Assembly: GCA_043810595.1 (NCBI GenBank)
Contig: JBDRNX010000037.1
Coordinates: forward strand, 1 to 50,842
Reading direction: 5' to 3'
DNA: 50,842 nucleotides
Source: an archaeon
Lineage (GTDB): Archaea; Nanobdellota; Nanobdellia; SCGC-AAA011-G17; VGLX01
Positions 1-29,313 of the stretch are shown piece after piece. A program made the position numbers and the translations under genes. Position 1 is the stretch's first letter. Each line of letters opens with the position of its first letter. The notes beneath the pieces are model-generated. The model worked only from the letters and a program-made list of their open reading frames with translations, was not told the origin of the DNA and did no database searches.

Positions 1-1
1 G

Positions 2-835
2 CTTTTACCTATCATCCTGATTCTTTTCTTGGTTGTTGGCTGTGCCACAACTCAGACGCGGTGGGGTGAGTGGCAGAATTACGGTCACTGGTATCCCGCT
101 GGTAACGCTTGCACTAAAGTGTCTGTCAAATCATATCCTGATGGTGCGACAGTTTACGTAAACGGTGTTTTCAAGGGAAGAACCCCTCTCGACATCAACC
201 TTTCTTATCCCATCCTTAAGAGTGAGGATACAAAAATCCAATATGAGATTTCCCCTCGGGGCTTGTTTTCCGGGCCCTCTCAGAGAAAGATTGGGGAGCA
301 AAAGCAGGAAAAAACAAAAATCGAGAGCAAGTCTTACAGGGTTGAGTTTAGGGAAGAGGGTTTTATCTCTGCAGTCAGAACTGTCACAGTTCCCGAAACA
401 AAGGAGGTTGAAGTAATCCTTAAGACGAAGCCGATTCTGCAGGTCAACAACTTTTCCATCAGGAACAGTTCTACCAGGTCTGCAGCCCAGCAAGCTTTTG
501 ATGCAGTATTATTCAAGGCTTTTAAGGTTGAGACCGCCCAAGATGTAATCCATAGGAATCATCTGAATGCAAAGATGATTTCAGAGGTTTTTGTAATTAC
601 CTCTGATTGTAAAAATGCTGATTATGTCCTCAATGGGGAAGTCGTTGTTCAGAACAGGGACACCACCCTGTGGATGTATCTGGTTACGAGAAAAGGTGTT
701 CCAGTTGTGTCAAAAAACATAGTAATCAGCAGCAGCGATGTTAATCGCCTTTACGAACATATGAACTCCCTGACTAAAGTTGTGTTGGAAAACTTCCTTA
801 GCTCAGAGGAGACCCTGCTCAAAGAAAGGAGGTGA
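2..835 (+). CDS. PEGA-domain lipoprotein, 5' end outside window
   Basis: The frame is open from the window edge. LLPIILILFLVVGC reads as a signal peptide plus lipobox Cys, upstream of the track start at 29. VKSYPDGATVYVNGVFKGRTPLDINL fits the PEGA signature. Confidence 0.6.
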   Translation, partial: LLPIILILFLVVGCATTQTRWGEWQNYGHWYPAGNACTKVSVKSYPDGATVYVNGVFKGRTPLDINLSYPILKSEDTKIQYEISPRGLFSGPSQRKIGEQKQEKTKIESKSYRVEFREEGFISAVRTVTVPETKEVEVILKTKPILQVNNFSIRNSSTRSAAQQAFDAVLFKAFKVETAQDVIHRNHLNAKMISEVFVITSDCKNADYVLNGEVVVQNRDTTLWMYLVTRKGVPVVSKNIVISSSDVNRLYEHMNSLTKVVLENFLSSEETLLKERR

Positions 836-859
836 AGCAGACTAACTTTTAACTAAATT

Positions 860-1300
860 TTGAAGGAGGGAGGTATTAAATTGAGAAGGAGGAATGTCAT
901 CAAGGAGTCTGGATATGTCACGACCAGGCAGGCGGCAGGGTTGTTGGGGGTTTCCCTATCAACAGCCATGAGGATGTTCGATAAGGGGATTCTCTCGGGC
1001 GATAAGAACAAAATCACCTACCGGAGGAAGGTCGACCTTGATAGTGTGGAGAAATTGGCAAGTAGCTTCGGAATAAATCCTCACGGAAGGGGCAAGGCTC
1101 GGGGCAAACATTTCAGCACTGGTGAGGCAGCTGTCATGTTGGAGATCTCTCGTTCTACGGTTTCGAGGATGTTTGATAAGGGTGTCCTCTACGGTGTGAA
1201 AAACCCCCTAACCCATGAAAGGATGGTAAGTTTCAACAGCATTAAGAAGCTTGCCGATTCCGTGGGTCTTGAAATTCAAAAGGAAGGAGGTGAATCTTGA
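860..1300 (+). CDS. DNA-binding protein with two tandem excisionase/MerR-like HTH (HTH_17-type) repeats
   Basis: Internal duplication TTRQAAGLLGVSLSTAMRMFDKGILSG / STGEAAVMLEISRSTVSRMFDKGVLYG, each followed by a ...KLA segment. The start is uncertain: TTG 860, or TTG 881 which sits 7 nt after GGAGGGAGG. Confidence 0.55.
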   Translation: MKEGGIKLRRRNVIKESGYVTTRQAAGLLGVSLSTAMRMFDKGILSGDKNKITYRRKVDLDSVEKLASSFGINPHGRGKARGKHFSTGEAAVMLEISRSTVSRMFDKGVLYGVKNPLTHERMVSFNSIKKLADSVGLEIQKEGGES

Positions 1301-1584
1301 TGTTAAAATTTCTTCCTCTGATTGCTTTGATCGTGATCGTTTTGACCCTTGCCGGAATGAGCTTTGCCGATAACATCGTCGCTCATAACATCAGTCCACA
1401 AAGCAGAAGCGACGTGAAGATGGGCAGTCATCGCCTCGAGGCAAAGCCTGCTGGCTCAGAAGTGGTTGTGTATCTTGATGGAGAAGAGATCTGGCGTGGA
1501 ACTGGGGAACACTATCTCGAAGCCCGCTCCACCGAAACTGAAACTGTGATCAAGATCGACGGCAAGAAGATCTGGCCGAAGTAG
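1297..1584 (+). CDS. small secreted protein
   Basis: TGATG stop-start overlap with the upstream gene. N-terminal hydrophobic signal peptide LKFLPLIALIVIVLTLAGMSFA. Confidence 0.5.
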   Translation: MMLKFLPLIALIVIVLTLAGMSFADNIVAHNISPQSRSDVKMGSHRLEAKPAGSEVVVYLDGEEIWRGTGEHYLEARSTETETVIKIDGKKIWPK

Positions 1585-1703
1585 TCCGGGATTGAGAGGT
1601 CTCCGTCTTGGCTTCAGGATTCAAGGTGGTTTACACCCACCACCCTCCTCACCTGCAGCTTCGGAGACCTCTCTTCTCATTCTTTGATAGAAAGGAGATG
1701 TTT

Positions 1704-1886
1704 ATGTTAAGGACTGTTGGCATGAAGGTTTCTTTTGCAGGTATTAAGGTGGAGGTTGATGACGAATGCGACCTCTGCACAGTCGATGAGTGCCCAAGTT
1801 TTAACGGCGGGTCTTGTCCGAACAAAGTGAAGGTGAAGGGCAAGAAGGGGCCGAGTTTGAAATTCAGAGAGCACTTTGAATCGTAG
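1704..1886 (+). CDS. small Cys-rich hypothetical protein
   Basis: The in-frame ATG at 1704 lies 6 nt after AAAGGAG, so the longer track ORF from 1608 probably over-extends. Contains CDLCTVDECPSFNGGSC. Confidence 0.4.
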   Translation: MLRTVGMKVSFAGIKVEVDDECDLCTVDECPSFNGGSCPNKVKVKGKKGPSLKFREHFES

Positions 1887-1908
1887 CTCATAGTGAAAGG
1901 AGGCCTCG

Positions 1909-2127
1909 ATGGTTCTGAGATCTTTGACCAATAGCATCGCATTTCTCGGTTATTGTGTTGGCTCCACGTTTGAGTTCTTTTCGATCATGGGGCTGCCTGG
2001 GAGGTACTTGGCTGTCAGGAATCAAGGCGATTTTGTGGTAGTCAAGGAGGTGGATAAAAACGGCTTACCGAAAAAAGGTACTCCAGAATTTCGAATCAAC
2101 AGGGACACAAAGGTAAGGCTTGTTTGA
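1909..2127 (+). CDS. hypothetical protein
   Basis: ATG preceded by GAAAGGAGG. Same strand and spacing as its neighbours. Confidence 0.45.
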   Translation: MVLRSLTNSIAFLGYCVGSTFEFFSIMGLPGRYLAVRNQGDFVVVKEVDKNGLPKKGTPEFRINRDTKVRLV

Positions 2128-2224
2128 AACCCTTGGGGAGGGTTGGTGATACAATGACGTTCAGAAGTGATGAGTCGAGGAGGGTTTTCAAATTATATTT
2201 CAGGGTTCCCAGGAAGGAGGTGTT

Positions 2225-2548
2225 GTGATGTTTTTTGAGGCGTTGGGTTACGTAGAGAGCGATGATTTTAAGTCGCATGTCAGGTCGTTGGCCGGAGACC
2301 TTGTCGATCAGGAGAAGAGGGCTGCTGTTTACAGGAACTTCACCTTTTTGATGGAGAATCTTCTCCTTATGGCTTACAGGGAGAAGGATATCACGAATTT
2401 TCTTCTCACTTTCGTTGAGAAGGTTGAAGAGCTCTTGAGCAGTTCCATGCGTCTTGTTGATATCTTAGGTGAAGACGAGGAGCACGACCTGATCAAATAC
2501 CTGGTGCGTGTGAGGCAAGACTTGACCGAGAAGTTACAAGATTCTTAA
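2225..2548 (+). CDS. hypothetical acidic cytoplasmic protein
   Basis: GTG-ATG start preceded by GGAAGGAGG. 107 aa with no signal peptide. Confidence 0.5.
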   Translation: MMFFEALGYVESDDFKSHVRSLAGDLVDQEKRAAVYRNFTFLMENLLLMAYREKDITNFLLTFVEKVEELLSSSMRLVDILGEDEEHDLIKYLVRVRQDLTEKLQDS

Positions 2549-2658
2549 GGTTTTGCCATCAACTCTGTAGGTGTAAAAAGTAATATCTCAAAGGGGAGGG
2601 TTGTTTTCTTGGCTCTCCCCTAATCTTTTCTAACCGTTTAGGGTAAGGGGGTGGTCAA

Positions 2659-3030
2659 ATGCAAAAAATAATTATTCCAATTATCTTGTTGTTTTTGGTT
2701 GGTGGGGCTCATGGCGAAGAGGTTTTTCCAGGTGTGAGCTACAGCTTTCATTTTTCCTGGGTCAGCATATCCAAAAATGAAGTCAGGCTTGAGCATTCGC
2801 AGCGGAGGGACTTGCTCTCTTTAGAATTTCATGATCATTCTGTATTTGCGATAGACTTCGAATGTGACGGTGTGTTGGACATAGTTTATTTCGGTAGCAA
2901 ATCTCTTTCTCGGGAGGATCCCTGTTTTGCTGAGTTGGAGGAATTTCTTAACAGGTGGAAGGTTGAAGCTTTCTACTACTCCATCGTTAGGGGATGGGAT
3001 GACTGGAAAAAGAAGGGGGGTGCGAAGTAG
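2659..3030 (+). CDS. secreted hypothetical protein
   Basis: SD GGGTAAGGGGGTGG is present. Signal peptide MQKIIIPIILLFLVGGAHG. Confidence 0.55.
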   Translation: MQKIIIPIILLFLVGGAHGEEVFPGVSYSFHFSWVSISKNEVRLEHSQRRDLLSLEFHDHSVFAIDFECDGVLDIVYFGSKSLSREDPCFAELEEFLNRWKVEAFYYSIVRGWDDWKKKGGAK

Positions 3031-3183
3031 AGTAAAATTAAGAAACTCGGGGGGGGAATAAGAAGGTCACCAGCAGTGTTCTTTCAAGTGCACTTTGCAG
3101 GAAGGTAAAGTTACATTCGTAGTCGTTCCAGGGGATCGTCATCTGCTCGGTGGCGGCCCCTTCTCTCAAATTAAAGGGGGTTT

Positions 3184-3369
3184 GTGATGAAGGAGAAGCT
3201 GCGTAATTATTTCCTAGAATGTTGCTCCTCTATTAAGCAGTTCTTTGAATGCTTCTTTGAGCTGGTTCCGGACACTTACAAGCGTTACAAATGGAAAACG
3301 CCTTTCATTTTGTTGTTCTTGTTTTTTGCTTCCATCGGCTATTTGATCTACAAAAAATTCTCTGATTGA
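3184..3369 (+). CDS. small membrane protein
   Basis: SD AAAGGGGG is present. C-terminal TM helix PFILLFLFFASIGYLIY. Confidence 0.45.
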   Translation: MMKEKLRNYFLECCSSIKQFFECFFELVPDTYKRYKWKTPFILLFLFFASIGYLIYKKFSD

Positions 3370-3575
3370 AAGGAGGTTTTATGAAATACGTGTTGGCTTC
3401 GTTGACTTTTTTAGTGTCTTACCTTTCCAAACTTGTGGATGTGCCGAAGGACTTTTTCAACAACTATCACCTCAACTTGGTATTCCATAAGGTCATGGAC
3501 GGTTTCACGGGTTTTTATCTCACAGTATTAAACCCGTGCTTTGGCCTTGGTGATTGTCCTTTCTTCACTGGTTAG
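3366..3575 (+). CDS. small hydrophobic hypothetical protein
   Basis: The TTG start overlaps the upstream stop. An internal ATG lies after AAAGGAGG, so the start is uncertain. Confidence 0.4.
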   Translation: MKGGFMKYVLASLTFLVSYLSKLVDVPKDFFNNYHLNLVFHKVMDGFTGFYLTVLNPCFGLGDCPFFTG

Positions 3576-3608
3576 GTATCTGAAAATGAAGCTGTGAAAG
3601 GAGGTCTG

Positions 3609-3767
3609 TATGGTTTCTATCTTGCTGGCATTGGTTGGTGTTGTTGTATTGATCCTCCTTGCCTACACGGCTTTGGTGTTTTTGTATGGCTATGCTAGGG
3701 GCGTTCAGAGAAGTGTTTACGAATCAAGCAAAAAATTGAACATTCTTACGAAAGGAGGGTCGCATGA
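3609..3767 (+). CDS. small single-TM protein (52 aa, below the ORF-track cutoff)
   Basis: Hand-translated as MVSILLALVGVVVLILLAYTALVFLYGYARGVQRSVYGIKQKIEHSYERRVA. AAAGGAGG lies 6 nt upstream. ATGA overlap with the next gene at 3764. Confidence 0.4.
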
Positions 3768-4036
3768 GCTCGATTAAGAAGCTTGTTTTTGCCATTTCAA
3801 TGATAGGTATTGGTTTGTTTGTTTACCACTCCCAGTTCCTTGCTGATTTAGAGAGTTACAAGCCTGCCAATCCCTGGTGGGACATGGGCTGCTGGTATTA
3901 CTATGCCATATTGTGGGGCCACAAGTACGGTTCCATCGTCTCGATGGTTTTTGGCACTGTGATGTTTATCGTGCTTGCTGTGAAGCAGTGTGTCAATTTC
4001 TTTCGAGACTTTTTCAAAAATCACCTGTATACATGA
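3764..4036 (+). CDS. membrane protein (2-3 TM)
   Basis: SD AAAGGAGGG is present. Hydrophobic segments LVFAISMIGIGLFVY and SIVSMVFGTVMFIVLAV. Confidence 0.5.
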   Translation: MSSIKKLVFAISMIGIGLFVYHSQFLADLESYKPANPWWDMGCWYYYAILWGHKYGSIVSMVFGTVMFIVLAVKQCVNFFRDFFKNHLYT

Positions 4037-4050
4037 AAGGAGAGGCGAGT

Positions 4051-4458
4051 ATGGGAAGGATAATTTTTACAGTTTTGATGATTTTTACTTTTACCTCAAT
4101 TGCATTAGCACAACCAAGTGATTTATCCCAGAAGGAGCTCCTCGATGTATTGTTGAATCACTTTGATCAGTACCGCTCACTGATTTACAAAGGGGAGTTC
4201 CTTAAGGGAGGGGAAGAATTGAGTGAGGCCTACACTATCCTCAAGAACCTTAAGAACATGAAAAGTCCATTACGCGTAGAAGGCTATCCCCGGTATTCAG
4301 ACAAGGACTTAATAGAAGGCCTCATGAAACCCCTTGAGGGTTATCGAAAGCACATATGTGAAGGGGATTTTACTCTAGCAAGCCTCGAGTTAGCCCTCTT
4401 TCATTCGCTCCTCAAAGAACTTATCAAGAGGGAAGCTGAATTGAAGAGGAAGCCTTAG
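4051..4458 (+). CDS. secreted helical protein
   Basis: In-frame ATG at 4051 after AAAGGAGAGG. Signal peptide MGRIIFTVLMIFTFTSIALA. The track ORF from 3877 overlaps the previous gene and is likely over-extended. Confidence 0.55.
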   Translation: MGRIIFTVLMIFTFTSIALAQPSDLSQKELLDVLLNHFDQYRSLIYKGEFLKGGEELSEAYTILKNLKNMKSPLRVEGYPRYSDKDLIEGLMKPLEGYRKHICEGDFTLASLELALFHSLLKELIKREAELKRKP

Positions 4459-4480
4459 TCACAATTTTAATGTCCCTTCA

Positions 4481-4524
4481 GGGTTGAGTATTTTTCACTT
4501 TTACTCAACCCTTCTTTTTTTTAT
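4481..4524 (+). terminator. intrinsic-terminator-like hairpin plus T-run
   Basis: GGGTTGAGTA (4481-4490) pairs with TACTCAACCC (4502-4511). CTTCTTTTTTTTATTTT follows. Confidence 0.6.
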
Positions 4525-4526
4525 TT

Positions 4527-4549
4527 TAATCTATTGGACATACAATATT
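4527..4549 (+). repeat. copy 1 of a 23-nt motif TAATyTATTGGnnATACAATATT
   Basis: 20 of 23 positions are identical to 16961-16983. Both copies sit immediately after a hairpin plus T-run. Confidence 0.6.
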
Positions 4550-4732
4550 AAAGGAAACCTTAAGCCTTTCCAGAACCTTTGTCCAGTGACAAAGGGGTGT
4601 TGCTCTTCCAAAATATTTAAATAATAGTGGGTATTCCTAATACACAGTAATTAAAGCTGTGTCTACTTGCAGTTAGTCTCAGTAATTCTGGAAAAAAAGA
4701 GGAAAAATTAACTATGGGGAGGTAGGATACAT

Positions 4733-4751
4733 AACCAAAAAGTATATAAAT
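4733..4751 (+). promoter_or_regulatory. archaeal BRE/TATA-like element
   Basis: AACCAAAAAGTATATAAAT is identical over 19 nt to 49323-49341. The second copy lies about 55 nt upstream of the SLT/LysM gene start. Confidence 0.45.
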
Positions 4752-5130
4752 GGGTTAATTCGCATAATTGAGTCACATTCACCAATTCAAAAATTAAAAA
4801 CCTCGGAGTTTAACTCCAAACACCCGCAAGGGTTTACCGGATCCACAAGCATACAAACAAAATTCACGCAATAATAAGTTTTGTTTGTTAGTTGCTTTGG
4901 ATAATGAGGTTGGATTCAAGAGACTGGCGATTTGCTTTGAATCGTTACTCCTGGAAAAACCTCGGAAGATGTGTGGAAAGCTTTGCTTTCGCAAATTGAG
5001 CCTTTGGCTTGTTTTCTTATATAGTGTGTTCCATTTCCTTAACTTTTCCTGAAAGTGAAAAACCCCGTTTTCATGGGTATTTCCTTGGGAATACCAAAAA
5101 ATAGAGCATAGAAAGGAGGTGGTGATTTAA

Positions 5131-5172
5131 AGGTTTTTCAGCAACTTAGGAAGGTTTTTCAGCAACTTAGGA
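5131..5172 (+). repeat. perfect tandem direct repeat, 2 x 21 bp
   Basis: AGGTTTTTCAGCAACTTAGGA occurs at 5131-5151 and again at 5152-5172. Confidence 0.85.
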
Positions 5173-5184
5173 AAGGAGTGTAAC

Positions 5185-5290
5185 ATGCGTTTGCGTTTCT
5201 TGAGAATGTTTTGTCGGCCTCCGTGATTAACTTCTCCTTCCTTGAACTATTTGGGGGTGTAGTTCAATTACATAACTTCTAGGGAAGGAG
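5185..5290 (+). promoter_or_regulatory. candidate leader peptide plus anti-SD attenuator for the 5298 gene
   Basis: A 13-codon ORF (MRLRFLRMFCRPP, 5185-5226) follows AAAGGAG. CTCCTTCC (5234-5241) is the exact complement of GGAAGGAG (5283-5290), which is the SD of the next gene. Confidence 0.25.
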
Positions 5291-5297
5291 GTTCATT

Positions 5298-5600
5298 ATG
5301 AAATCGTTGGAATGTTTAAAGCCTGGGCAGTGTCCGGAAGGCGGGATTAGTGCAGATAAGTTAAATGTTGAGTTAAAAAAAGCACCTTTAAATAAAGACT
5401 TGGTGTGGGTGTGGGCAAAGAGTACTATCATTCAAAAGGTATCAGGCAAGATTGAGGCTGGCCTCGTCAAGGTTCGTCTTGTTAAAGGTGAAAGTCCCAA
5501 CGGTCAGAAGGAGTTTCGCTTGAAAGGCACCGAGAGTGTGAGTCTGATTTTCGCCCAGTTCGCCCAGAGAACTAATAATAAGAAGAACAAAAAACGATGA
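5298..5600 (+). CDS. hypothetical basic protein
   Basis: ATG lies 7 nt after GGGAAGGAGG. 100 aa with a Lys-rich tail. Confidence 0.5.
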   Translation: MKSLECLKPGQCPEGGISADKLNVELKKAPLNKDLVWVWAKSTIIQKVSGKIEAGLVKVRLVKGESPNGQKEFRLKGTESVSLIFAQFAQRTNNKKNKKR

Positions 5601-5696: not shown

Positions 5697-6188
5697 ATGA
5701 AGATTTTCGGATTATTAGTGGTATTTCTTCTTTTGTTCCCATCTATCTCTCCTACGCAGCAGCTCGAGCGTGATATCAAGTTGGATGTTTTCTTCACAGA
5801 CCTTGTTCCAGAGTTGAAAAAGCCTGAGCATAGAGAGTTGTTGCAGAGCCTTCAGATGGATAGGGATTTTTTCAACCGTGAGATTGGTGAGAAGGTGATG
5901 GCTGAGATAAAAAACTCAAATTTCTTAGTCAAGGTCCCTGACCGCATCATGCTTTGCTTAACAGGAAGAATAGAGTCTGTAAGCAAGGGCTTGCTTTCTG
6001 ATGAGATTACCTACATTGTTTATTTTCTTACAGCAGTTCGCAACAGCGAGCCAAAGCCGAATAAGCCCCTTCACATTATTCCTATCAAGGTTAACTGGCC
6101 TGAAGGAACTCCTCTCAATGAGTTGCTCAAGCCAAAGATTAGGGAGGCAGTGGACACCATAGTAAGGGAGGTGATTCAGAAAAAATGA
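5697..6188 (+). CDS. secreted hypothetical protein
   Basis: SD AAAGGAGG is present. Signal peptide MKIFGLLVVFLLLFPSISP. Confidence 0.55.
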   Translation: MKIFGLLVVFLLLFPSISPTQQLERDIKLDVFFTDLVPELKKPEHRELLQSLQMDRDFFNREIGEKVMAEIKNSNFLVKVPDRIMLCLTGRIESVSKGLLSDEITYIVYFLTAVRNSEPKPNKPLHIIPIKVNWPEGTPLNELLKPKIREAVDTIVREVIQKK

Positions 6189-6231
6189 GTTTGGAAGGAG
6201 GTGGTTAACTTAGACAGAAAGGAGGTGTCAC

Positions 6232-6753
6232 ATGTTGAGGTACACTAAGGTGTTTGTTTTCTTGTTGTTCTCCCTTCTCATACCTGTCTTTGTTTTTTCT
6301 CAGCAGCCAACGGACAAGATGAAGGTCTGTATTAGTATTGAAGACCGCACTCCCGAGAAGAAGTTTCAGGCGAATCTCAAGGACTGGTTTACAAAAGGCC
6401 TGGTTGATACGGGCAGGTACGTAATCACCAAAGAGAGGAAAGAAGCACAGTATCAAATGACTTTAACCTTAGACAAAGCCAGTTTTTATGTGCTTCGGAA
6501 TCTTCCTTACACCGGCGTATCCCTGAACGTTGTGGTAAGTGAGATAGACCCGAAGACCGGCAAGGCTTTGCCAACTGGTCCTCCCTACGTCGTTGTCCAA
6601 CACCAGAAGCATGATATCACTTTGGAGGAAGCTGTCAAGGAAGCTGTGAAACAAGCAGCGGATGCGTTGAGGCTGTTCCATTTTAAATTCCATTTCAAAA
6701 GGGTCAACCCTACTTCTCCTGCTAACCCATTAAGCAAATCCAAGGCGGCATAA
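6232..6753 (+). CDS. secreted hypothetical protein
   Basis: SD GAAAGGAGG is present. Signal peptide FVFLLFSLLIPVFVFS. Confidence 0.55.
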   Translation: MLRYTKVFVFLLFSLLIPVFVFSQQPTDKMKVCISIEDRTPEKKFQANLKDWFTKGLVDTGRYVITKERKEAQYQMTLTLDKASFYVLRNLPYTGVSLNVVVSEIDPKTGKALPTGPPYVVVQHQKHDITLEEAVKEAVKQAADALRLFHFKFHFKRVNPTSPANPLSKSKAA

Positions 6754-6864
6754 CCTTCCTTCTGTTTGGGAGGTTCAAAACTTTGAAGAAAGGGGGTGAA
6801 TTAGTTTTACCATAGGGTAAAAGGGTTTAACTCAAAAAATCCAAAGAGACGGAGGTGTAAAGAG

Positions 6865-7263: not shown

Positions 7264-7287
7264 GCCCGTGATTGAGTAAGCCCGTGA
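7256..7287 (+). repeat. perfect tandem duplication, 2 x 16 bp, spanning the stop codon
   Basis: TTGAGTAAGCCCGTGA occurs at 7256-7271 and again at 7272-7287. Confidence 0.85.
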
Positions 7288-10389: not shown

Positions 10390-10494
10390 TTTCTTCCCGA
10401 TTGGGGGGGGCTGCACATGGTGAAAACGTTTCACCCCCAGAGCATATCACCCCTTGTTTCACCGGCAGCCCTCCTCCTTTTTCTGGAGGTTTTT

Positions 10495-11493
10495 ATGAAA
10501 AAGTATAACTTGTTTATGATGTTTTTTTTAGTTTTTTTCATACTTTTTTTCCCTGGTTCTGCAGGCTGGAAGATAGCTATCATCGCTTTCATTTTCCTGC
10601 TGCCTTACCTAGTAAAACAGCTTTTGAAGAAAGGAGGTGGAAAAAATACGTTGGTTGAAATGTTTTTTTCTTTGTTTATTTTTTTGTTTGTTGTTTCTTG
10701 TGCGACAACGCAGCAACAGGTGGTTATGCCAACACCTACAGAAGGTACAACTAAGGTGAGATTTACTAAGATCGGTGTTGACGAAAAGCAGGCTCCTCCC
10801 CTTTCTTTTTTTCTCGTTCCCGAAACTTTAAATGTTGAGGTTCCTTACGAGAAGGATACACCTCTTTTTGTCAACTTTGTGAATTGCAAGGAAGAAGTTC
10901 TTATGGTTTCCGTAAATCCGCAAACAATTCCTGAATGGATTCGTATACACCCTGCTTTTCTGGTTAGGGCTTTGGAGATCAAGAGGGTTGATTTTACTCT
11001 TATGCCTTACAAGTCAAAAGATGTTCCCCAGGAGTTCTCGATAACCTTCAAGGCCAAAGAGTCAGTTAGGAATCTTAAGTTGACTGTCAAGGTTTCTAAA
11101 TCCGAAAAAGTAGATTCTTTGGGAAAGCAGGAAGTTCAGCCAGTTCCTCCGAAAGAGGTTGAGAAAAAACCCATCGAAGTTCCTAAGGTTAAGGATGTGG
11201 TCAGGCGCGTGTTATTTTCTGTTCACGTGGCCTCTTTCAAGAATAGGGAAGAGGCTTTGGATTTTGTGGACAGCATGCCTAACCTGGAGCCGAAGACTAG
11301 TGTGATCCTTTATGACCTCGGTAGTAAGGGTTTGTGGTATCGGGTCTTTGTGGGGCTTTACAACACCCATGAGACTGCATTGGGGGTTGCGAGACATTTT
11401 AAGGAATTCTTCGGCTGGGGCTATGCGCTACCCATACAGGTTTATGAGGATTCCTTCCTTAGGGGGAAGGTTAAGAAGCGGAAGCGTGAATGA
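10495..11493 (+). CDS. membrane/lipobox protein with a C-terminal SPOR domain
   Basis: ATG at 10495 after CTGGAGG. TM helices, then FVVSC-ATTQQQ. The C-terminus FSVHVASFKNREEALDFV...GLWYRVFVGLYNTHETALGVARHF fits the SPOR peptidoglycan-binding repeat. Confidence 0.65.
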   Translation: MKKYNLFMMFFLVFFILFFPGSAGWKIAIIAFIFLLPYLVKQLLKKGGGKNTLVEMFFSLFIFLFVVSCATTQQQVVMPTPTEGTTKVRFTKIGVDEKQAPPLSFFLVPETLNVEVPYEKDTPLFVNFVNCKEEVLMVSVNPQTIPEWIRIHPAFLVRALEIKRVDFTLMPYKSKDVPQEFSITFKAKESVRNLKLTVKVSKSEKVDSLGKQEVQPVPPKEVEKKPIEVPKVKDVVRRVLFSVHVASFKNREEALDFVDSMPNLEPKTSVILYDLGSKGLWYRVFVGLYNTHETALGVARHFKEFFGWGYALPIQVYEDSFLRGKVKKRKRE

Positions 11494-11610
11494 GGAGGCT
11501 GTTATGGCTGTTGTTTTTCTCTTTACAGTAGCTGTGGGTAAGTATTTCAAATGGAATCAGAGGTATTACCCTTCATTTAAGAAGAATGATGAGGAGGCTG
11601 ATAAGAATTA

Positions 11611-11781
11611 GAGGGGCCTTCGGTCAGATAACGCGTCGCGCACCCACGCGTATCCTCGTTACTTTCACCTCCACCGGGGGCCCCTCTTTTTGCTTCAGGG
11701 GGATGCTGCAGAGCGAACCTCCTTTCTGGGGATTTACGGGAACCCTCAGTTTGAGAAGTGGCATCCCACCCCTGTTTTTTT
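11611..11781 (+). other. two consecutive large GC-rich hairpin modules, each ending in a T-run (sRNA or compound terminator)
   Basis: GAGGGGCC (11611-18) pairs with GGCCCCTC (11679-86), followed by T5, with an inner ACGCGT...ACGCGT stem. GGGGGATGC (about 11698) pairs imperfectly with GCATCCCACCCC (11761-72), followed by T7. Confidence 0.35.
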
Positions 11782-11886: not shown

Positions 11887-12009
11887 ATGGTTGTTTTCAT
11901 ATGCCTGAATTGTGCTTTAGTTCATCGTATAGGCTCACTGAGTGATGTGGTCACTTGTGGTTGTGGCATGATTCTTTCTATCGATACTGCTAACTTGGAC
12001 TATGATTAG
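11887..12009 (+). CDS. possible 40-aa zinc-ribbon-like peptide
   Basis: Hand-translated as MVVFICLNCALVHRIGSLSDVVTCGCGMILSIDTANLDYD, with CxxC...CxC. Weak SD GGGAAGGTGA. Confidence 0.3.
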   Translation: MVVFICLNCALVHRIGSLSDVVTCGCGMILSIDTANLDYD

Positions 12010-12031: not shown

Positions 12032-12673
12032 ATGAATAAGATGTTTTTTATTTTCCTAATTCTTTTTTCAACCCTCTCTGTTTACTCTGTTTGGGGTCAA
12101 GAAAGGTTCGAAGCGCCTATATGGAATGTAGGTGATGAATGGCAATATACCTTTAGTGAGTTTGGGAGGAGGGTTTTTGTAACGCATAAAGTTGTTAAGA
12201 TTACCGAAAACTTCTATTTTGTTGCGATGGGGGGGTTCAAAGGCTTACACGTCTATGATAAAAAGACTTTGAACATACGTTTTTATATAGATGAGGGTAA
12301 CAGAAAGCATGAGTTCAAGGATTCTTTGAGAAAACTTTTTGATTTTCCTATGTTTGTGGGAAAGAGTTGGAATGATGAATTCATTAAAAGGAATGAGTAT
12401 GCTGAGTTGAACATCACAATCTCTAACCACTTTAATGTCGAGGAGTTTGAAAAGAGAAACCAGTCTTTAGGCCTGTTCGACGTTTTGAGGGTTTATTGTA
12501 AGGAAACAGCCACAATAGATGATGATAAAGATAAAACCGTTACAAGGTGGCTGCGTTACTGGTATTCCCCTAAGGTAAAGAACCTCGTTAGGCAAGAAAT
12601 TGGAGAAAAATCCAATTTCGTATCTTCAAGTTCAAGGGAGATTGTTCTTCATCAGCATACCTTGAAAGAGTAA
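12032..12673 (+). CDS. secreted hypothetical protein
   Basis: SD AAAGGAGG is present. Signal peptide MFFIFLILFSTLSVYSVWG. Confidence 0.55.
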   Translation: MNKMFFIFLILFSTLSVYSVWGQERFEAPIWNVGDEWQYTFSEFGRRVFVTHKVVKITENFYFVAMGGFKGLHVYDKKTLNIRFYIDEGNRKHEFKDSLRKLFDFPMFVGKSWNDEFIKRNEYAELNITISNHFNVEEFEKRNQSLGLFDVLRVYCKETATIDDDKDKTVTRWLRYWYSPKVKNLVRQEIGEKSNFVSSSSREIVLHQHTLKE

Positions 12674-12744
12674 TGTGTGTTATGCTGCGCTAAAATATCT
12701 TTAAATAAGAAGCTTAAGTTTTGAAAAAAGGATAAGGAGGTGGT

Positions 12745-13044
12745 TTGATGAATAACGGAGAATTTATGATGAGATGGTTTATCAGCGTTTTTGGCATCAT
12801 AGCAAGTTTGTTTATGATGCTAGTAAATTCTGCTTTGATAGTGTATGTTGTCTGGCAAGCTGTTCATCTTAAGAGTTCAGACATCAGTCCGCTCGTGAGT
12901 TGGGTTACCTCCTCAGCGATTTCCATCCTCATAGCATATATGGTCTACAGTGCAAGTGTCAAGTTTTACACTTTTCTGAAGCGTCTTCCTCTTATTCGTC
13001 AGCATCTGAATAACGGCGGGACATTGGCTGATTTGAGTGAGTAG
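12745..13044 (+). CDS. membrane protein (3 TM)
   Basis: SD AAGGAGGTGG is present. The start is TTG 12745 or ATG 12748. Three hydrophobic helices. Confidence 0.5.
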   Translation: MMNNGEFMMRWFISVFGIIASLFMMLVNSALIVYVVWQAVHLKSSDISPLVSWVTSSAISILIAYMVYSASVKFYTFLKRLPLIRQHLNNGGTLADLSE

Positions 13045-13052
13045 CCAAGTAA

Positions 13053-13601
13053 ATGAGGGTGTTCGATAATGAGAGGCTCCTGACCCTTGAGATTCAAAGG
13101 CGAGCCATACGCCTTTCCTCCTTGAACGGTTGGGGGCCTCTCTCAGTTTCAAATCTTTGTAGAAGGGTGGTGATATCCTTGTTGGTAGACAACGCTTTTT
13201 CTAAGCATAAAACCAGCGTCAAATGTGTTGAGGACAAACTCGAGGACCTTGCAGGTTTTGTTAGGAAAGTAAGAAGGCAAACTCTAAACAACGGCGGTGT
13301 AGGTCTACCTGAATTGAAGAACCTCGAGGAGAAGGTGCATAGTATCAAAAAATCCGTCCAGTTCCTTAAGGATACAGATATTTTTAGGGTTGCGATAACA
13401 ACCAAACTTACATCCGATGAAATTCTTAAAGAGGCGAAGGATCATAACGTATTGATAGTCTCACTTTTGAAGATCGGTTTTGTTAACAGGAAAGTGCAGT
13501 TTGTTGCTGACGGGTCATTTCAGAACCTAAAGGATTTTCTTGCTCGTATGAAAGATGTTGAGCGGGCTGAGGAGTTGAACCATATTGATGCTTCGAGATA
13601 A
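13053..13601 (+). CDS. hypothetical cytoplasmic protein
   Basis: 182-aa ORF on the same strand. It shares an R-Q-x-LNNGG-x-L motif with the tail of the preceding protein. Confidence 0.45.
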   Translation: MRVFDNERLLTLEIQRRAIRLSSLNGWGPLSVSNLCRRVVISLLVDNAFSKHKTSVKCVEDKLEDLAGFVRKVRRQTLNNGGVGLPELKNLEEKVHSIKKSVQFLKDTDIFRVAITTKLTSDEILKEAKDHNVLIVSLLKIGFVNRKVQFVADGSFQNLKDFLARMKDVERAEELNHIDASR

Positions 13602-13651
13602 TACTAAGATTTTTTTAACAAAAAGTTCTATAATCAAGGAGGTAAAAACGT

Positions 13652-13813
13652 ATGTCTATGCCGTTAATAATCGCTGGTGTGGTCGGCTTTCTCCTTATCT
13701 GCCTCTCTGTTTTTCTGAGCGGAAACTATACGATGGGAATACTGTTAGGGCTTTTCGTACTGATAATAATCCTGGTATTCCGGGGGAAATCTGGGTCCAA
13801 ATTGTGGAAGTAG
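13652..13813 (+). CDS. small 2-TM membrane protein (53 aa, not in the track)
   Basis: ATG lies 8 nt after CAAGGAGG. Reads MSMPLIIAGVVGFLLICLSVFLSGNYTMGILLGLFVLIIILVFRGKSGSKLWK. It displaces the overlapping track ORF at 13585-13848. Confidence 0.45.
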   Translation: MSMPLIIAGVVGFLLICLSVFLSGNYTMGILLGLFVLIIILVFRGKSGSKLWK

Positions 13814-13862
13814 GCAACTCTCCTTATTTTGATAACATTATGCCTTAGGTGATAAGTTTAGC

Positions 13863-14249
13863 GCGCTGGAGTTTTTGAAGGAGGTGGTTTGCATGGTGAA
13901 ATTGTTAGTGCCATTTCTCATTTTTAGCTTGTCATTTGCTCCATTGGGGTTCGTCCAGGACAAAGCTAAAGGTGAGGTCAAGGTTCCAGAATCGAAAAAA
14001 AGTAGTTCGCTTGAATCTCTGAACGTAAAGCCTCAAGAGGTTGAAAAGGGGTGGGGGGATTATTCCAGCCGGCCGGAGATTTGGTCTGTGGGTTTGGATC
14101 TTTTGGAACAAATCTACATCCTCAATGTAACGCTGACCCCTTCGCCGCCACCCTACCGCCCTTCTGGCGGTATCAGTTGTGTCCAGCAAGTTGGTGGGCG
14201 GAACGTCGCTACCATCAACCAAAACTAAAACTATTGAAAACTCCAGCGC
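13863..14249. repeat. 13-nt perfect inverted-repeat pair bracketing ORF 13893-14228
   Basis: GCGCTGGAGTTTT (13863-13875) and AAAACTCCAGCGC (14237-14249). The left arm, with its 2 upstream nt (13861-13869), shares GCGCGCTGG with the arm at 8301-8309. Confidence 0.75.
13893..14228 (+). CDS. small secreted protein ending in a single curlin-type repeat
   Basis: ATG after GAAGGAGG. Signal peptide LLVPFLIFSLSFAPLGFV. The C-terminus QQVGGRNVATINQ matches Q-x-G-x-x-N-x-A-x3-Q exactly. Confidence 0.5.
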   Translation: MVKLLVPFLIFSLSFAPLGFVQDKAKGEVKVPESKKSSSLESLNVKPQEVEKGWGDYSSRPEIWSVGLDLLEQIYILNVTLTPSPPPYRPSGGISCVQQVGGRNVATINQN

Positions 14250-14305
14250 CAACTTTTTTAAATTTAATTCAAAGGCTCACAAAAGAGGAGAAAGGAGAAG
14301 GAAAA

Positions 14306-14539
14306 ATGAAGAAGATTATTTGTGCAGGTTTAATAATGGCAATGTCTATATTCGTGTTTTTAGGGGGTGTCTACCGACTGAAGCAAATGATGTTAGAGGT
14401 CAAGGCATTACCTACTGGGGAACAGGGCGTGGGGGCTATTGTGCTTATATTTATAGGAACTCTAATATGTGGAGTGTGTCTTACAACCTTTTTTTTGGGT
14501 CTGTGTAAATTAAGGGGGGATAATCAATTAATTAGGTAA
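14306..14539 (+). CDS. small 2-TM membrane protein
   Basis: In-frame ATG after GAAAGGAGAAGG. Reads MKKIICAGLIMAMSIFVFLGG... The longer track ORF from 14051 overlaps the previous gene. Confidence 0.5.
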   Translation: MKKIICAGLIMAMSIFVFLGGVYRLKQMMLEVKALPTGEQGVGAIVLIFIGTLICGVCLTTFFLGLCKLRGDNQLIR

Positions 14540-14610
14540 AAAGGCCCACACTCTTTAACTTGATTCTGAAATAACAACTAAACTTTTATTGCAGAAAGGA
14601 GAATAAAAAA

Positions 14611-15150
14611 ATGTACAAGAATACTTTTTTGCTGTTTCTGATTGTCGTTTCTGTGTTGGGTTGTGCCACCCAAATGAGTTCAACCTATCCCACTCCCCCC
14701 TCTGCAACTCCGAAGGAGATTGTTTGTCAGTATGCTAAGTCAGCAAGTGCAACTTCAGAGAACGCTGCCGGTTCTTTAGCAATTTATGCTACCGGCGCAC
14801 CAGATGCTCCAAAAGGAGGGGATTGTGATGCTTGGAGTGGTTACGGTTACAGCTGGACTTCTTCAGGATGGGATTTCAAAGCAAAACTAACCCTGACTTA
14901 CGAGAAGCCTGTTTATGTTGGCAGCGTTACTGTAGCCGGCGATTATGATATGTGCTGGGGTGGTGCGTGGCTTAGGAACAGTAAGACTGGCGAGGAAAAA
15001 AGTATTCTCAGCCCGGTGAATAAAGATTGTACATTGAATATAAAGCTGGAGGGAGACTTCCTCGCAGACCAGGTTATTCTTGAGAGTTGCGGTTGGTCTT
15101 GGTCAGCCACCGATGCCGTTGAGATGTGTGGTGCTCCTGCCGGTAAGTAA
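14611..15150 (+). CDS. lipoprotein, possibly with a discoidin (F5/8 type C)-like domain
   Basis: SD AAAGGAG is present. Lipobox VLGC-ATQ. The layout AKSASATSEN...A..ATGAP and the C-terminal ATDAVEMCG resemble galactose-binding-like domains. Weak call. Confidence 0.5.
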   Translation: MYKNTFLLFLIVVSVLGCATQMSSTYPTPPSATPKEIVCQYAKSASATSENAAGSLAIYATGAPDAPKGGDCDAWSGYGYSWTSSGWDFKAKLTLTYEKPVYVGSVTVAGDYDMCWGGAWLRNSKTGEEKSILSPVNKDCTLNIKLEGDFLADQVILESCGWSWSATDAVEMCGAPAGK

Positions 15151-15166
15151 AGAAAGGGGGTGTTGG

Positions 15167-15538
15167 ATGAAGGTAAGGAATATTTTTTATTTGACCATTT
15201 ATGGTGTCTTGTGTATGTTCTTGGGTGCTTTTATTATAGGGGTTCTTGATTTTTATTTCAAGAGAAATATGGTTCAAGTCCGTCTAAACACAAAGCATTA
15301 CGAAGCGGATATTCTCTTCAAGAACCCCCTCATCCTGGTTATCAACAGGATCGATGAAGTGGAGAGAAGGGTTCAGGGCGGCATGGAAGACATGCTCATA
15401 GACCTGATGGCCCCCTCACCTTTCCAGAAGGTTTTTAGCAAGATAAACAAGGAAAAGCTCGACGAGAAGAAGAAACTTGTTGAGGCTTTCAAGGATTTTT
15501 TGCAAGAGAAAAAGGTTGAAGGAGAAACTGAACTTTGA
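15167..15538 (+). CDS. N-terminally anchored membrane protein
   Basis: ATG after AAAGGGGG. TM helix IFYLTIYGVLCMFLGAFIIGVL. Confidence 0.5.
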   Translation: MKVRNIFYLTIYGVLCMFLGAFIIGVLDFYFKRNMVQVRLNTKHYEADILFKNPLILVINRIDEVERRVQGGMEDMLIDLMAPSPFQKVFSKINKEKLDEKKKLVEAFKDFLQEKKVEGETEL

Positions 15539-15570
15539 AGTTGCATAATCCATCTAGGGAGGTTGTCGTG

Positions 15571-16062
15571 ATGAGACCTAAATCCTTTTTGCTTTTTATT
15601 TTCTTATCTTTTTGTGCGTGTGCTACCATACCTGAAGACTATTCTATTCAGTGCATAAAAGGGAACGTGGTTGTTATGGCACCGCATACGGTTGAGGCCA
15701 GAAACAGCTATCTTGGAAAAGAGGGTCCTGTATGGGCATGGGAAACCACCTTTGTAGAAAACTCTGAGGTTATAGGGGTAACAATAACCCATCGTGAGCT
15801 GAAAATACAAGTCCCAGACGGTAGCGTTTGGGAGAACATAGATCCTGTTACAAAAAAGCCGTTGGGCAAAGTTCCTCTTAGCATTAGGGTTAATCCTGGA
15901 GGTGTGAAGAACTATAAATTTTGGTGTTATGATACCTCCCACAGGATGTGTAACAGTATATGTTCCCTCACTTTCTACGGCGTGGATGACACGGGTAAAC
16001 AGCTCGTTTTGCCCACTATGATATTCTTCTCCCATAAAGGCTGTCAGAAAAGGATTAGGTAA
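15571..16062 (+). CDS. lipoprotein
   Basis: ATG after TAGGGAGG. Reads MRPKSFLLFIFLSFCAC-ATIPE, a signal peptide plus lipobox-like Cys. Confidence 0.55.
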   Translation: MRPKSFLLFIFLSFCACATIPEDYSIQCIKGNVVVMAPHTVEARNSYLGKEGPVWAWETTFVENSEVIGVTITHRELKIQVPDGSVWENIDPVTKKPLGKVPLSIRVNPGGVKNYKFWCYDTSHRMCNSICSLTFYGVDDTGKQLVLPTMIFFSHKGCQKRIR

Positions 16063-16292
16063 TTACAAATCTATGTCAGAGGAAGGTGATATGCGTAAGA
16101 ATCTGTCAAAGGAAATAGCGGGGGGGTGTTGGTTTTCTGGGTCTTTCCATGATTGCTTTCAAAATGGTGAAATGCTTTGAGACGTCAAAGGGAAGGTACA
16201 ATAACTACGTTACCGGCTTGTCAAACGGGGAGGTTTTGAAGTTGAAATATTATGAAAGGAAGGTGAGGTAACCCTGAGAGGAGGTGATTAAG

Positions 16293-16883
16293 ATGAGAAA
16301 GAAAGGTTTTACTGTCATCGAGCTTCTTATCATTATTGCGATTGTCGGTATTATTGCTGCCATCGCCATCCCTATGTACAAGATGCATGTGATGAAGCCA
16401 AGGATTATCACTTCTGCTCTGGAGACTATGCCTCTCTGCAGAGATGTGGAACCTTCTTCAATCAAGATAAAGGGTAGGTGCATTATCATTGATGCAGATA
16501 AGCGGGATTTTGTTTCAGAATACGAGTCCCTACTTAAACCAAATATCAGAGGCGCTATCAGTAACCCTGAATTAACAATCTTCGCTGTGTCTAAAGGTAA
16601 GGAAGTTCAGATTGGTCATTATTCTGTCACTAAAGAGCCTGCTTTTCAGAGTTACGTTGATATTTATGTCATCTACTATCCTGAAAGCGTTCCTGTTGGG
16701 AAAGTTTCCCTCCCCCTATGGAAACCACCGGAAAAGAAGCCAGTTTCGCTGAAGTTGCCTAAAGATTCTAAAGATTATGTGGTGCCAACAGGGTTTGTCG
16801 AGTTGTGGATCAATAACCTTACGGAGCCTAAGGTTCCTAAGGAGCAGCCTGCGGGGGAGTACGAAGTTCTTATCAAGGATTAA
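16293..16883 (+). CDS. bacterial-type type IV pilin/pseudopilin (N-methylation motif)
   Basis: ATG after GAGAGGAGG. MRKKG|FTVIELLIIIAIVGIIAAIAIP is the canonical G-F-T-x-I-E prepilin cleavage/methylation signature. Confidence 0.75.
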   Translation: MRKKGFTVIELLIIIAIVGIIAAIAIPMYKMHVMKPRIITSALETMPLCRDVEPSSIKIKGRCIIIDADKRDFVSEYESLLKPNIRGAISNPELTIFAVSKGKEVQIGHYSVTKEPAFQSYVDIYVIYYPESVPVGKVSLPLWKPPEKKPVSLKLPKDSKDYVVPTGFVELWINNLTEPKVPKEQPAGEYEVLIKD

Positions 16884-16893
16884 AACATTAATG

Positions 16894-16939
16894 GGGTGGG
16901 GCTTCATTTTGTTTCCAATATGGAGCCCCAACCTTTTTT
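16894..16939 (+). terminator. intrinsic-terminator-like hairpin plus T6
   Basis: TGGGGCT (16897-16903) pairs with AGCCCCA (16924-16930). ACCTTTTTT follows. This marks the end of the co-directional cluster. Confidence 0.55.
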
Positions 16940-16960
16940 AAAAATTCTATTTTTTTGCCA

Positions 16961-29310: not shown

Positions 29311-29313
29311 AAA

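Follow-up and report, generated by a model that had tools for sequence, protein, structure and literature searches.

We consider it likely that the gene cluster filling the first 16.9 kb of archaeal contig JBDRNX010000037.1 (analysed over its 50,842 nucleotides and referred to here as the window) is a genuine island in the chromosome of a DPANN archaeon, belonging to the Nanoarchaeia and near the Woesearchaeota, and that this island has taken up a type VIII secretion (curli) module from bacteria. The window covers the right-hand part of the surface island, which is variable and a mosaic of mostly lineage-restricted small secreted, membrane and lipoproteins. Compared across related assemblies, the island is a variable block of genes lying between S10, EF-1alpha and DUF87 ATPase genes on one side and YdjM, DUF763, radical-SAM and PolX genes on the other in one clade of Nanoarchaeia. 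The original prediction, made from the sequence of the window alone, had offered three readings, namely a horizontally acquired surface island, an envelope toolkit of a double-membraned or episymbiotic archaeon, and a chimeric assembly.

The question of linkage was addressed by comparison with other assemblies carrying homologous genes. These were a 38-kb contig labelled ‘MAG: archaeon’ at NCBI (MAG: metagenome-assembled genome; JAZDEN010000017.1, here JAZ, also L001), a 14.5-kb Logan contig from SRR22387928 (L015), the 102-kb contig CAYSAF010000001.1 (L011), a 21-kb JGI contig (L010), and an 11.6-kb contig (L008) and contig 19 (L009) of the same ‘Candidatus Nanoarchaeia’ MAG (GCA_038884815.1). 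Loci in a bacterial context were L002, on a 179-kb contig of GCA_040960625.1, a second such locus, L020, and a more distant one from a Planctomycetota MAG (L007).

The curli module

The module spans positions 5697–11493 of the window, on the + strand. Its central gene (7336–8259) encodes a CsgG homologue (Pfam CsgG, 4e-46), a lipoprotein with the lipobox ILGC-A and the predicted channel subunit of type VIII secretion. This protein aligns to the E. coli CsgG structures over residues 13–268 (2e-41), with both membrane-hairpin regions free of gaps (SAGAGAGYRGFGLSARAK / EEVDFSIFRFLKIDKLLEVETGFT), and the lipobox residues G20 and C21 as well as the hairpin residues are invariant in 10 of 10 sequences. 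An AlphaFold2 (AF2) model built with ten homologues matches 6l7c and 4uv3 with a template-modelling (TM) score of 0.63–0.65 on the target, and all of the top 25 matches in a Foldseek fold search of the PDB with this model were CsgG; the model has long strands at residues 143–160, 168–187 and 193–213, at low pLDDT (predicted local distance difference test). Alignment and model together suggest that the homologue keeps the two amphipathic beta-hairpins of the 36-stranded transmembrane barrel type.

The csgF gene adjoins csgG in seven of seven loci. In the window (6865–7263, +) it encodes a secreted CsgF homologue (Pfam CsgF 8.4e-7, residues 14–88, with 29.6 bits where the cut-off is 25.8), of which residues 27–63 give a weak match to the CsgF of PDB entry 6lqh, and whose N-terminal part has the FGNPxFxxGNxxNG...L motif region, which in E. 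coli plugs the CsgG channel. The third core component, a CsgA/CsgB-like curlin-repeat subunit (8342–8989, +; Pfam Curlin_rpt 4.8e-15, NCBIfam CsgB 4e-14 and CsgA 2e-12), consists of a signal peptide and eight repeats of 24 aa (GxNxSxIxQxGxxNxAxVxQ) at a spacing of 24–25 aa; the curlin of L008 has 18 repeats. With predicted CsgG, CsgF and curlin subunits all present, the module has the core of a curli system, and we class it as a putative variant curli shared with a few uncultured bacteria.

Around this core lie genes for further exported proteins. Two at 5697–6753 (+) encode secreted accessory proteins of 163 and 173 aa with no match in Pfam or NCBIfam, the homologues of which occur in both archaeal and bacterial CsgF/CsgG loci and sit directly 5′ of csgF in JAZ, L008, L015 and the bacterial L002. 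A secreted all-beta accessory protein of 374 aa (9265–10389, +) belongs to a family of only 17 representative clusters among 1.84 billion proteins, whose genes lie 3′ of the csgG or curlin gene in JAZ, L008, L002 and L020; a PDB sequence search with it gave no match, and its AF2 single-sequence model reached a pLDDT of 38.7, too low for a fold search. The last gene of the module (10495–11493, +) encodes a membrane protein with the lipobox VVSC-ATTQ and a C-terminal SPOR domain (Pfam SPOR 1.1e-6, above cut-off), a domain that binds the glycan of peptidoglycan, and has homologues at the same position in JAZ and L008.

CsgG is under purifying selection, with lipobox and hairpins kept. The ratio of nonsynonymous to synonymous substitution rates (dN/dS) of csgG is 0.084 relative to an 86%-identical copy (dS about 1.0) and 0.08–0.16 in other csgG pairs, and across other pairs and genes it is 0.08–0.27; given these low values, the curli genes are not decaying. 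That the module is a functionless relic of a past transfer, as its absence from the close relatives L010 and L011 and its atypical codon usage might suggest, is for this reason very improbable: the module genes are intact, with their reading frames, in at least four diverged lineages, dN/dS is 0.08–0.25 for csgG, csgF and the 374-aa gene, and Shine–Dalgarno (SD) sites and signal peptides are preserved.

Layout, signals and composition of the island

Within positions 1–16,950 every credible open reading frame (ORF) lies on the + strand, as had been predicted, and those on the − strand are shadows inside + genes (for example 8357–8986, opposite the curlin repeats). The cluster is co-directional as described, with 31 genes of 35–374 aa, two conserved micro-ORFs included, where about 35 had been expected. 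A GGAG-type SD site, earlier assigned to each gene, was found 4–18 nt upstream of 25 of the 31, and its consensus GAAAGGAGGTG was detected as a dispersed repeat family. Start and stop codons, for which overlaps of the ATGA/TGATG type had been proposed, overlap at 1297/1300, 3366/3369, 3764/3777 and 15535/15538. An N-terminal hydrophobic segment is present in 24 of the 31 products rather than in nearly all, and the five lipoboxes (VVGC-ATTQ, ILGC-AATS, VVSC-ATTQ, VLGC-ATQM and FCAC-ATIP) are exactly those quoted in the original prediction. Whilst the PEGA, CsgF, CsgG, curlin, SPOR and GFxxxE pilin domains named there were all recovered with Pfam, a possible discoidin at 14611–15150 found no support in Pfam or PDB matches. 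For 20 of the 31 products there was no family match in Pfam, NCBIfam or PHROGs. Rfam detected no regulatory RNA in the island, at the gathering threshold or at E<=1, nor in L001, L007 or L008, and scans for sigma-70 promoters and intrinsic terminators gave counts equal to those of shuffled controls on both sides of the window.

The two sides of the window differ in composition. The G+C content, predicted to be higher on the left, is 43.7% there against 38.8% on the right, the G+C content at third codon positions (GC3) is 0.51 against 0.405, and relative synonymous codon usage (RSCU) correlates at 0.59 between left and right compared with 0.75–0.86 within each set. Right-hand genes have a GGAG-type SD site in only about 5 of 35 cases, and many have a TATA-like box 25–35 nt before the ATG. 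The host can translate the island genes, since the L7Ae operon of this archaeon itself uses the SD sequence AAGGAGGT. Predictions point to lipoboxes as a frequent feature of DPANN archaea, in which lipoproteins and AliA are reported to be prevalent (PMC12462473). Because of this, and of the GGAGG SD site of the L7Ae operon, the lipoboxes and GGAGG SD sites are a weaker argument for a ‘bacterial’ nature of the island than had been implied.

The same island in related archaea

The junction of the window is reproduced in L015, where a CsgF/CsgG island, YdjM (−) and DUF763 follow one another in the same order and orientation. The full order in L015 is DUF87 ATPase, small genes, csgF, csgG (64% identity), a gene for a 437-aa curlin, a 66-aa gene, YdjM (−) and DUF763, and the right flank, with YdjM (70%) and DUF763 (58%), continues with two radical-SAM genes and PolX (83%). 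In JAZ, S10 (−) and aEF1A (−) come first; the + strand then carries the DUF87 ATPase gene and about 25 small genes, among them an 84% homologue of window gene 1297–1584, an N_methyl pilin, genes for 160-aa and 158-aa proteins, csgF and csgG (71%), and then a curlin gene (60%), genes for a 354-aa protein and a SPOR protein, and further OmpA-like, VWA and TelA genes. The region 14557–18768 of JAZ encodes two OmpA_C-like peptidoglycan-binding proteins, a VWA protein, TelA and a 936-aa UPF0182 protein.

L011 carries aEF1A (−), the DUF87 gene, about 15 small genes that include homologues of five window island genes, and DUF763 (74%), beyond which the synteny of the window is retained. At 5764–6543 its island encodes a full-length homologue of the TraT surface-exclusion lipoprotein. 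Genes of this sort, TraT in L011 and the set at 14557–18768 in JAZ, are otherwise typical of the envelopes of diderm bacteria. About 20 small + strand genes with three shared families precede DUF763 (76%) in L010, and the contig runs onward to FtsZ (89%); some of the small genes of L010 and L011 are homologous to window genes 3184, 3366, 3764, 5298, 12032, 12745 and 15167. L008 holds island genes only (CsgG 69%), and L009, from the same MAG, holds DUF763 (76%), PolX and EndoV. Curli genes are thus found in L015, JAZ, L008 and the window.

The left end of the island is seen in L014 (3219–5769), L011 (664–3229) and L015 (547–3083) as genes for a 150-aa coiled-coil protein and a 694-aa DUF87 ATPase; the corresponding region of the window lies past its left edge. 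The ATPase has weak similarity to CedD, TraD and VirB4, with scores far under the cut-offs, and together with its coiled-coil partner is 71–79% identical between lineages, like core genes. On these two grounds we treat it as a flank gene and reject it as a conjugation ATPase marking an integrative and conjugative element (ICE). Homologous clusters in the same synteny in related archaea, proposed as a check of the island, are therefore on hand in L015, JAZ, L011 and L010: core genes flank it in JAZ, L011, L015 and the window, its content varies and its composition deviates.

These contigs also bear on the idea that assembly fused a bacterial fragment to an archaeal contig near 16.9 kb. The shifts in G+C, GC3 and codon usage across the junction, the sharply different use of SD sites to its left and right and the bacterial envelope type of every named island domain all speak for such a chimera. 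The same join is found, however, in L015 at only 58–83% protein identity, CsgF and CsgG are linked to aEF1A and S10 in JAZDEN010000017, and homologous small genes are linked to DUF763 in L010 and L011, on contigs that come from different samples and assemblers. There is no long or shared repeat at the window junction, and tetranucleotide usage is not discordant, the TETRA z-score correlations between left and right (0.28–0.45) overlapping those within the left side (0.41–0.43) in 5–8-kb segments that are too noisy to decide the matter. Four independent assemblies at 58–89% protein identity cannot all share one misjoin, and we accordingly regard the chimera, which these divergent assemblies refute, as scarcely credible.

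Origin of the module

CsgG has only 18 relatives among 5.8 billion proteins, and the automatic annotation at NCBI labels the one from JAZ ‘CsgG/HfaB family protein [archaeon]’. The bacterial-context loci L002 and L020 have the same variant module (163-aa, 173-aa, curlin, CsgF, CsgG and 372-aa proteins) among genes for sigma-54 activators, HisKA kinases, FKBP_N and MtrC-like cytochromes, and in these bacterial relatives the GC3 of the module equals that of its neighbours (0.58 and 0.58). When JGI metagenomes were scanned with the CsgG alignment, the only matches were three distant CsgG-like loci and one contig of 1.2 kb, and a scan of IMG/VR found no relative of CsgG. In a neighbour-joining (NJ) tree with the Planctomycetota MAG CsgG as outgroup, the archaeal-linked sequences other than L015 form a clade with 100% bootstrap support, those in a bacterial context form one with 95%, and the two together are supported at 100%. 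A transfer from bacteria to archaea is the parsimonious direction because the wider CsgG family is bacterial, and on this evidence the module would have come from bacteria with the same variant module and then been kept by purifying selection in the archaea. The fixed position of the island in several Nanoarchaeia and the grouping of its module with bacterial loci support the first of the original readings, that of a horizontally acquired surface island.

Several findings weigh against the explanation we favour, that of an archaeal island which has taken up a bacterial secretion module. In L010 and L011, which are close relatives, the islands have no curli genes. In every lineage (JAZ, L015, L008/L009 and the window) the GC3 of the island (0.51–0.60) exceeds that of the archaeal core (0.37–0.50) by 0.09–0.15 and resembles that of the bacterial relatives (0.58). 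Synonymous sites between the archaeal csgG copies are saturated, and this saturation and the unconverged GC3 together are hard to reconcile with a single ancient transfer and simple vertical inheritance thereafter. The CsgG of L015 joins the other archaeal copies with only 44% bootstrap support, so that one transfer is indistinguishable from two, and a single clade of all archaeal copies is not established once L015 is included. To our knowledge CsgG occurs only as an outer-membrane channel of diderm bacteria and no outer membrane is known for the Nanoarchaeia, which leaves the CsgG barrel without an established cellular place and is the weak point of the mechanism set out below. The constriction residues Y51, N55 and F56 of E. 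coli CsgG are not conserved (RSVNATDLSKAV (RSVNATDLS) against PYPASNFSTAV); A78, T79, L81 and S82 are invariant within the subfamily, which points to a constriction loop that is present but made of different residues. Among the 31 island products CsgE, CsgC and CsgD gave no Pfam or NCBIfam match, and no separate CsgB is recognisable, the sole nucleator candidate being the single-repeat protein at 13875–14228. Many bacterial curli systems are likewise without such genes (Dueholm 2012, PMC3521004).

Some of these findings could be accounted for if the island were an integrated ICE, plasmid or provirus of bacterial ancestry that circulates among these archaea with a cargo serving the element itself. 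We consider this improbable but keep it alive because in no lineage has GC3 converged on that of the host, island content (the curli genes included) is unevenly shared by close relatives, the window has an excisionase-like HTH_17 regulator and the L011 island has a full-length TraT homologue; to these may be added the weak CedD/TraD/VirB4 similarity of the left-end ATPase and the JAZ homologue of 1297–1584, with a dS of only 0.42 while csgG is saturated. The island of the window and the complete islands of L011 and L015 contain, however, no integrase, relaxase, attachment (att) repeat, tRNA target, replication genes or capsid genes, and the island has an identical position in all lineages. The core-like conservation of the DUF87 ATPase and its coiled-coil partner (71–79% between lineages) also argues against an element, as do the lack of a CsgG relative in IMG/VR and the restriction of PHROGs matches to generic HTH and ATPase families; the integrase of the window (24728–25996) belongs to a separate region beside tRNA-Gly.

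Proposed function

The most likely function of the acquired module, as predicted from its sequences, is the export of a curlin-repeat amyloid fibre or adhesin. Island products would be exported by Sec via their signal peptides, and an archaeal AliA-type pathway would lipid-anchor the lipobox proteins, CsgG among them. The conserved hairpins and the CsgF motif suggest that CsgG may then form an oligomeric barrel capped by the N-terminal peptide of CsgF, through which the 8-repeat curlin subunit would pass outward to polymerise into amyloid fibres; CsgF and the single-repeat protein at 13875–14228 might nucleate or cap these. Attachment to a partner cell, to a bacterial wall or to a biofilm matrix could follow from these fibres acting with the PEGA, SPOR and pilin-like proteins. 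Possible places for CsgG are an as yet undescribed outer layer, the envelope of a partner, or a non-canonical lipid-tethered ring.

A more specific proposal refines rather than excludes this explanation. It holds that the archaeon either has diderm bacteria as hosts or is itself bounded by an outer membrane, with the CsgG/CsgF barrel in that second membrane, and we put it forward as possible although on balance doubtful. Its details are equally tentative: SPOR, OmpA-like, PEGA and SLT/LysM-type proteins might grip or cut peptidoglycan, and curlin fibres might tether the cells. The DPANN clade would thereby have domesticated a CsgG-CsgF pore and its amyloid substrate, with the pore perhaps working in a second bilayer, either an as yet unseen outer membrane of its own or the envelope of a bacterial host, reached from the archaeon by way of the lipid anchor, a step to which we give no greater credence. 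The proposal draws on the conservation of the CsgG hairpins and lipobox under strong purifying selection, since some bilayer must then receive the barrel, and on the SPOR domain in the window island, the two OmpA_C-like domains in JAZ, the outer-membrane-type TraT in L011 and the SLT lytic transglycosylase in the archaeal core of the window (49397–50428). Bacterial hosts have also been proposed for Woesearchaeota and Pacearchaeota, from their murein transglycosylases (Castelle et al., 2021, PMC8204110), and the recurrence of peptidoglycan-directed domains in these archaea agrees with that proposal. The hairpins that CsgG keeps under purifying selection and the SPOR, OmpA-like and SLT domains, which bind or cleave peptidoglycan, also make the second of the original readings, that of an envelope toolkit, attractive. 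On the other hand, no Bam-, Lol-, Lpt-type or other outer-membrane biogenesis genes were seen in the roughly 150 kb of related archaeal sequence looked through, known cultivated DPANN have archaeal hosts, and insertion of CsgG into a foreign membrane from outside has no known precedent. The domains could also be carried-over baggage of the transferred genes.

Other genes of the island

All remaining island genes are likewise on the + strand. The first (2–835), whose frame and lipoprotein signal peptide are open to base 2 and which therefore runs off the left edge, its 5′ end being cut there, encodes a PEGA-domain lipoprotein (Pfam PEGA 3.1e-10; signal peptide ending LLPIILILFLVVGC-ATTQ). It is followed at 860–1300 by a gene for a cytoplasmic regulator with two HTH_17 (excisionase/MerR-like) domains (Pfam HTH_17 2.5e-11 in two stretches; PHROGs excisionase-like match 5e-9), of which L008 has a single-domain homologue at 10108–10362. 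A lineage-restricted secreted protein of 95 aa (1297–1584) has three relatives among 5.8 billion proteins, the 84%-identical one lying on archaeal contig JAZDEN010000017 (dN/dS 0.17). Eight small genes at 1909–4458, for mostly membrane or secreted proteins of 55–135 aa, have SD sites and hydrophobic N-termini in their products and no Pfam family; families 3184, 3366, 3764 and 2659 among them have homologues in the islands of JAZ, L008, L010 and L011. An 840-bp stretch without a credible gene (4460–5297) interrupts the otherwise tightly packed island; it begins with a terminator-like hairpin, has 21 nt duplicated exactly in tandem at 5130–5171 and matches nothing in Rfam. The 100-aa protein at 5298–5600 clusters with JAZ_16359, L011_6769 and L010_3920 and so belongs to a family present in four archaeal islands.

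Downstream of the module, two conserved micro-ORFs encode a 35-aa membrane peptide (11504–11611) and a 40-aa zinc-ribbon-like peptide (11887–12009), and L008 shows matching peptides at 10692–10862 and 10887–11012. Between the two, after the SPOR gene, positions 11612–11780 contain two strong G+C-rich hairpins, each with a U-run (minimum free energy −66 kcal/mol, z −2.7), whose sequence is not conserved in L008 or JAZ; this is probably a double terminator between two operons. The genes at 12032–13044 encode a secreted 213-aa protein and a 99-aa protein with two transmembrane (TM) helices, with homologues in L011/L012 (34%), L010 and L008; their families recur adjoining DUF763 in related archaea, and a PDB sequence search with 12032–12673 gave no match. 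Among the four small genes at 13053–14539, that at 13875–14228 encodes a secreted 117-aa protein, the final 20 residues of which are a single curlin repeat (VQQVGGRNVATINQ; VQQVGGRNVATINQN), and its product could be a fibre nucleator, cap or anchor. The genes at 14611–16062 encode a 179-aa lipoprotein (VLGC-ATQM), a 123-aa membrane protein and a 175-aa lipoprotein (FCAC-ATIP), with homologues in L008 (57% and 51%) and, for gene 15167, in JAZ and L011; Pfam gave no match for this group.

The last island gene (16284–16883) encodes a bacterial-type prepilin (KKG followed by FTVIELLIIIAIVGIIAAIAIP; Pfam N_methyl 1.3e-6), in which the G-FxxxE motif is followed by a hydrophobic helix (NCBIfam IV_pilin_GFxxxE, TIGR02532, above cut-off) and a 170-aa globular part of no assigned family. 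Profile searches found none of the pilus assembly genes PilB/GspE, PilC/GspF and PilD among the island products. A PIN-T2SSE-KH protein at 33467–35275 was rejected as a pilus ATPase, being a conserved archaeal core gene, and an archaeal-type pilin is encoded apart from the island at 40488–41087. A hairpin with a T-run (16886–16945, +), followed by an AT-rich spacer, marks the right end of the island.

The archaeal side of the window

To the right of 16.95 kb the genes are archaeal, as had been claimed, with L7Ae, Spt5 (NGN/KOW) and S28e identified by profile, FtsZ, SecDF, PolX and aminoacyl-tRNA synthetases by reading, and intron-bearing tRNAs; the nearest relatives are Nanoarchaeia and Woesearchaeota. 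The island is followed by genes for a YdjM-like membrane protein (16998–17480, −; Pfam YdjM, below the curated cut-off) and a DUF763 protein (17615–18673, +; Pfam DUF763), the latter with thousands of archaeal relatives, the best named of which are from Nanoarchaeia and then Woesearchaeota. Two intron-bearing tRNAs were found by Rfam and by ARAGORN with -i, whilst default ARAGORN missed both: tRNA-Val(CAC) at 32392–32477 has a 10-nt intron, reported at the non-canonical position 35, and tRNA-Leu(CAA) at 37656–37781 has a 40-nt intron at position 38.

About 1 kb (18670–19660) is inserted between DUF763 and the radical-SAM gene, two genes that abut in L009, L011 and L015; its two overlapping ORFs, with HTH_23 and weak LAGLIDADG_3 matches, are probably a frameshifted homing endonuclease. 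The region 24561–32477 consists of tRNA-Gly(CCC), a tyrosine integrase gene (24728–25996; Pfam 3e-14) and about 6 kb of ORFans with a GC3 of 0.36, up to tRNA-Val, and is probably an integrated element distinct from the island; a search of 24.6–32.4 kb for att direct repeats belonging to the integrase gave none. Among archaeal core genes, 49397–50428 encodes a membrane-anchored protein with an SLT lytic transglycosylase domain (Pfam 2.9e-16), a type of peptidoglycan-cleaving enzyme in an organism expected to be without peptidoglycan.

Significance and comparison with known systems

Surveys of curli systems list only Bacteria and judge horizontal transfer minor or rare (Dueholm 2012, PMC3521004), and we found no literature report of CsgG, CsgF or curlin in Archaea. 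What is new here is the domain of the host, an archaeon with a curli set; the curli system itself is known, and is present as a variant within a lineage-specific surface island. A conserved CsgG-CsgF-curlin set under selection at a fixed site in several DPANN genomes offers a handle on attachment in uncultured archaea that probably depend on hosts, on envelope make-up and on possible life on bacteria, a matter that Castelle et al. (2021; PMC8204110) left unsettled. Should the pore indeed work in a second bilayer, Archaea would for the first time be seen to operate a beta-barrel secretion machine of bacterial type, and there would be direct genomic evidence of either archaeon-on-bacterium episymbiosis or a new archaeal diderm envelope. 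Contigs such as L008, with ‘bacterial’ envelope genes only, are normally purged from archaeal bins as contamination, although native. The variant module is uncharacterised in any organism and would add new accessory proteins and an altered constriction to a family whose CsgG pores are of technical interest.

Outside the archaea, the nearest relatives in the tree are the variant bacterial modules of L002 and L020, with L007 farther away, in which the gene set and order around csgF-csgG are alike and CsgG is 60% identical; unlike the window, L002 and L020 have neither the SPOR partner nor a surrounding island of small proteins. Enterobacterial curli (csgBAC-csgDEFG; 4UV3, 6L7A, 6SI7) share with the window a lipoprotein CsgG of the same fold with both hairpins, an adjoining CsgF with the channel-binding motif region and a secreted curlin-repeat (QxGxxNxAxxxQ) subunit. 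The archaeal system differs from them in its carrier, which has no known outer membrane, in the absence of CsgE, CsgC and CsgD, in the replacement of Y51, N55 and F56, in its 8–18 repeats of 24 aa and in its additional 163-, 173- and 374-aa secreted and SPOR partners. In the HfaA/HfaB/HfaD holdfast anchor of Caulobacter, HfaB is a CsgG-family lipoprotein that exports amyloid-like attachment anchors; the NCBIfam HfaB match to the window CsgG (9e-15) is far weaker than that of CsgG itself (1e-44), and the window has CsgF and curlin repeats instead of HfaA/HfaD-type partners. The Methanosaeta sheath protein MspA is an archaeal extracellular functional amyloid that serves as structural surface material, but the sequences of such amyloids are unrelated, and no export channel of CsgG/CsgF type is known for them. 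The lytic transglycosylases of Woesearchaeota and Pacearchaeota (PMC8204110) are likewise bacterial envelope genes kept in DPANN and have been read as tools for contact with bacteria; these are single enzymes, whereas the window holds a predicted multi-gene secretion and assembly machine of a kind that normally spans an outer membrane.

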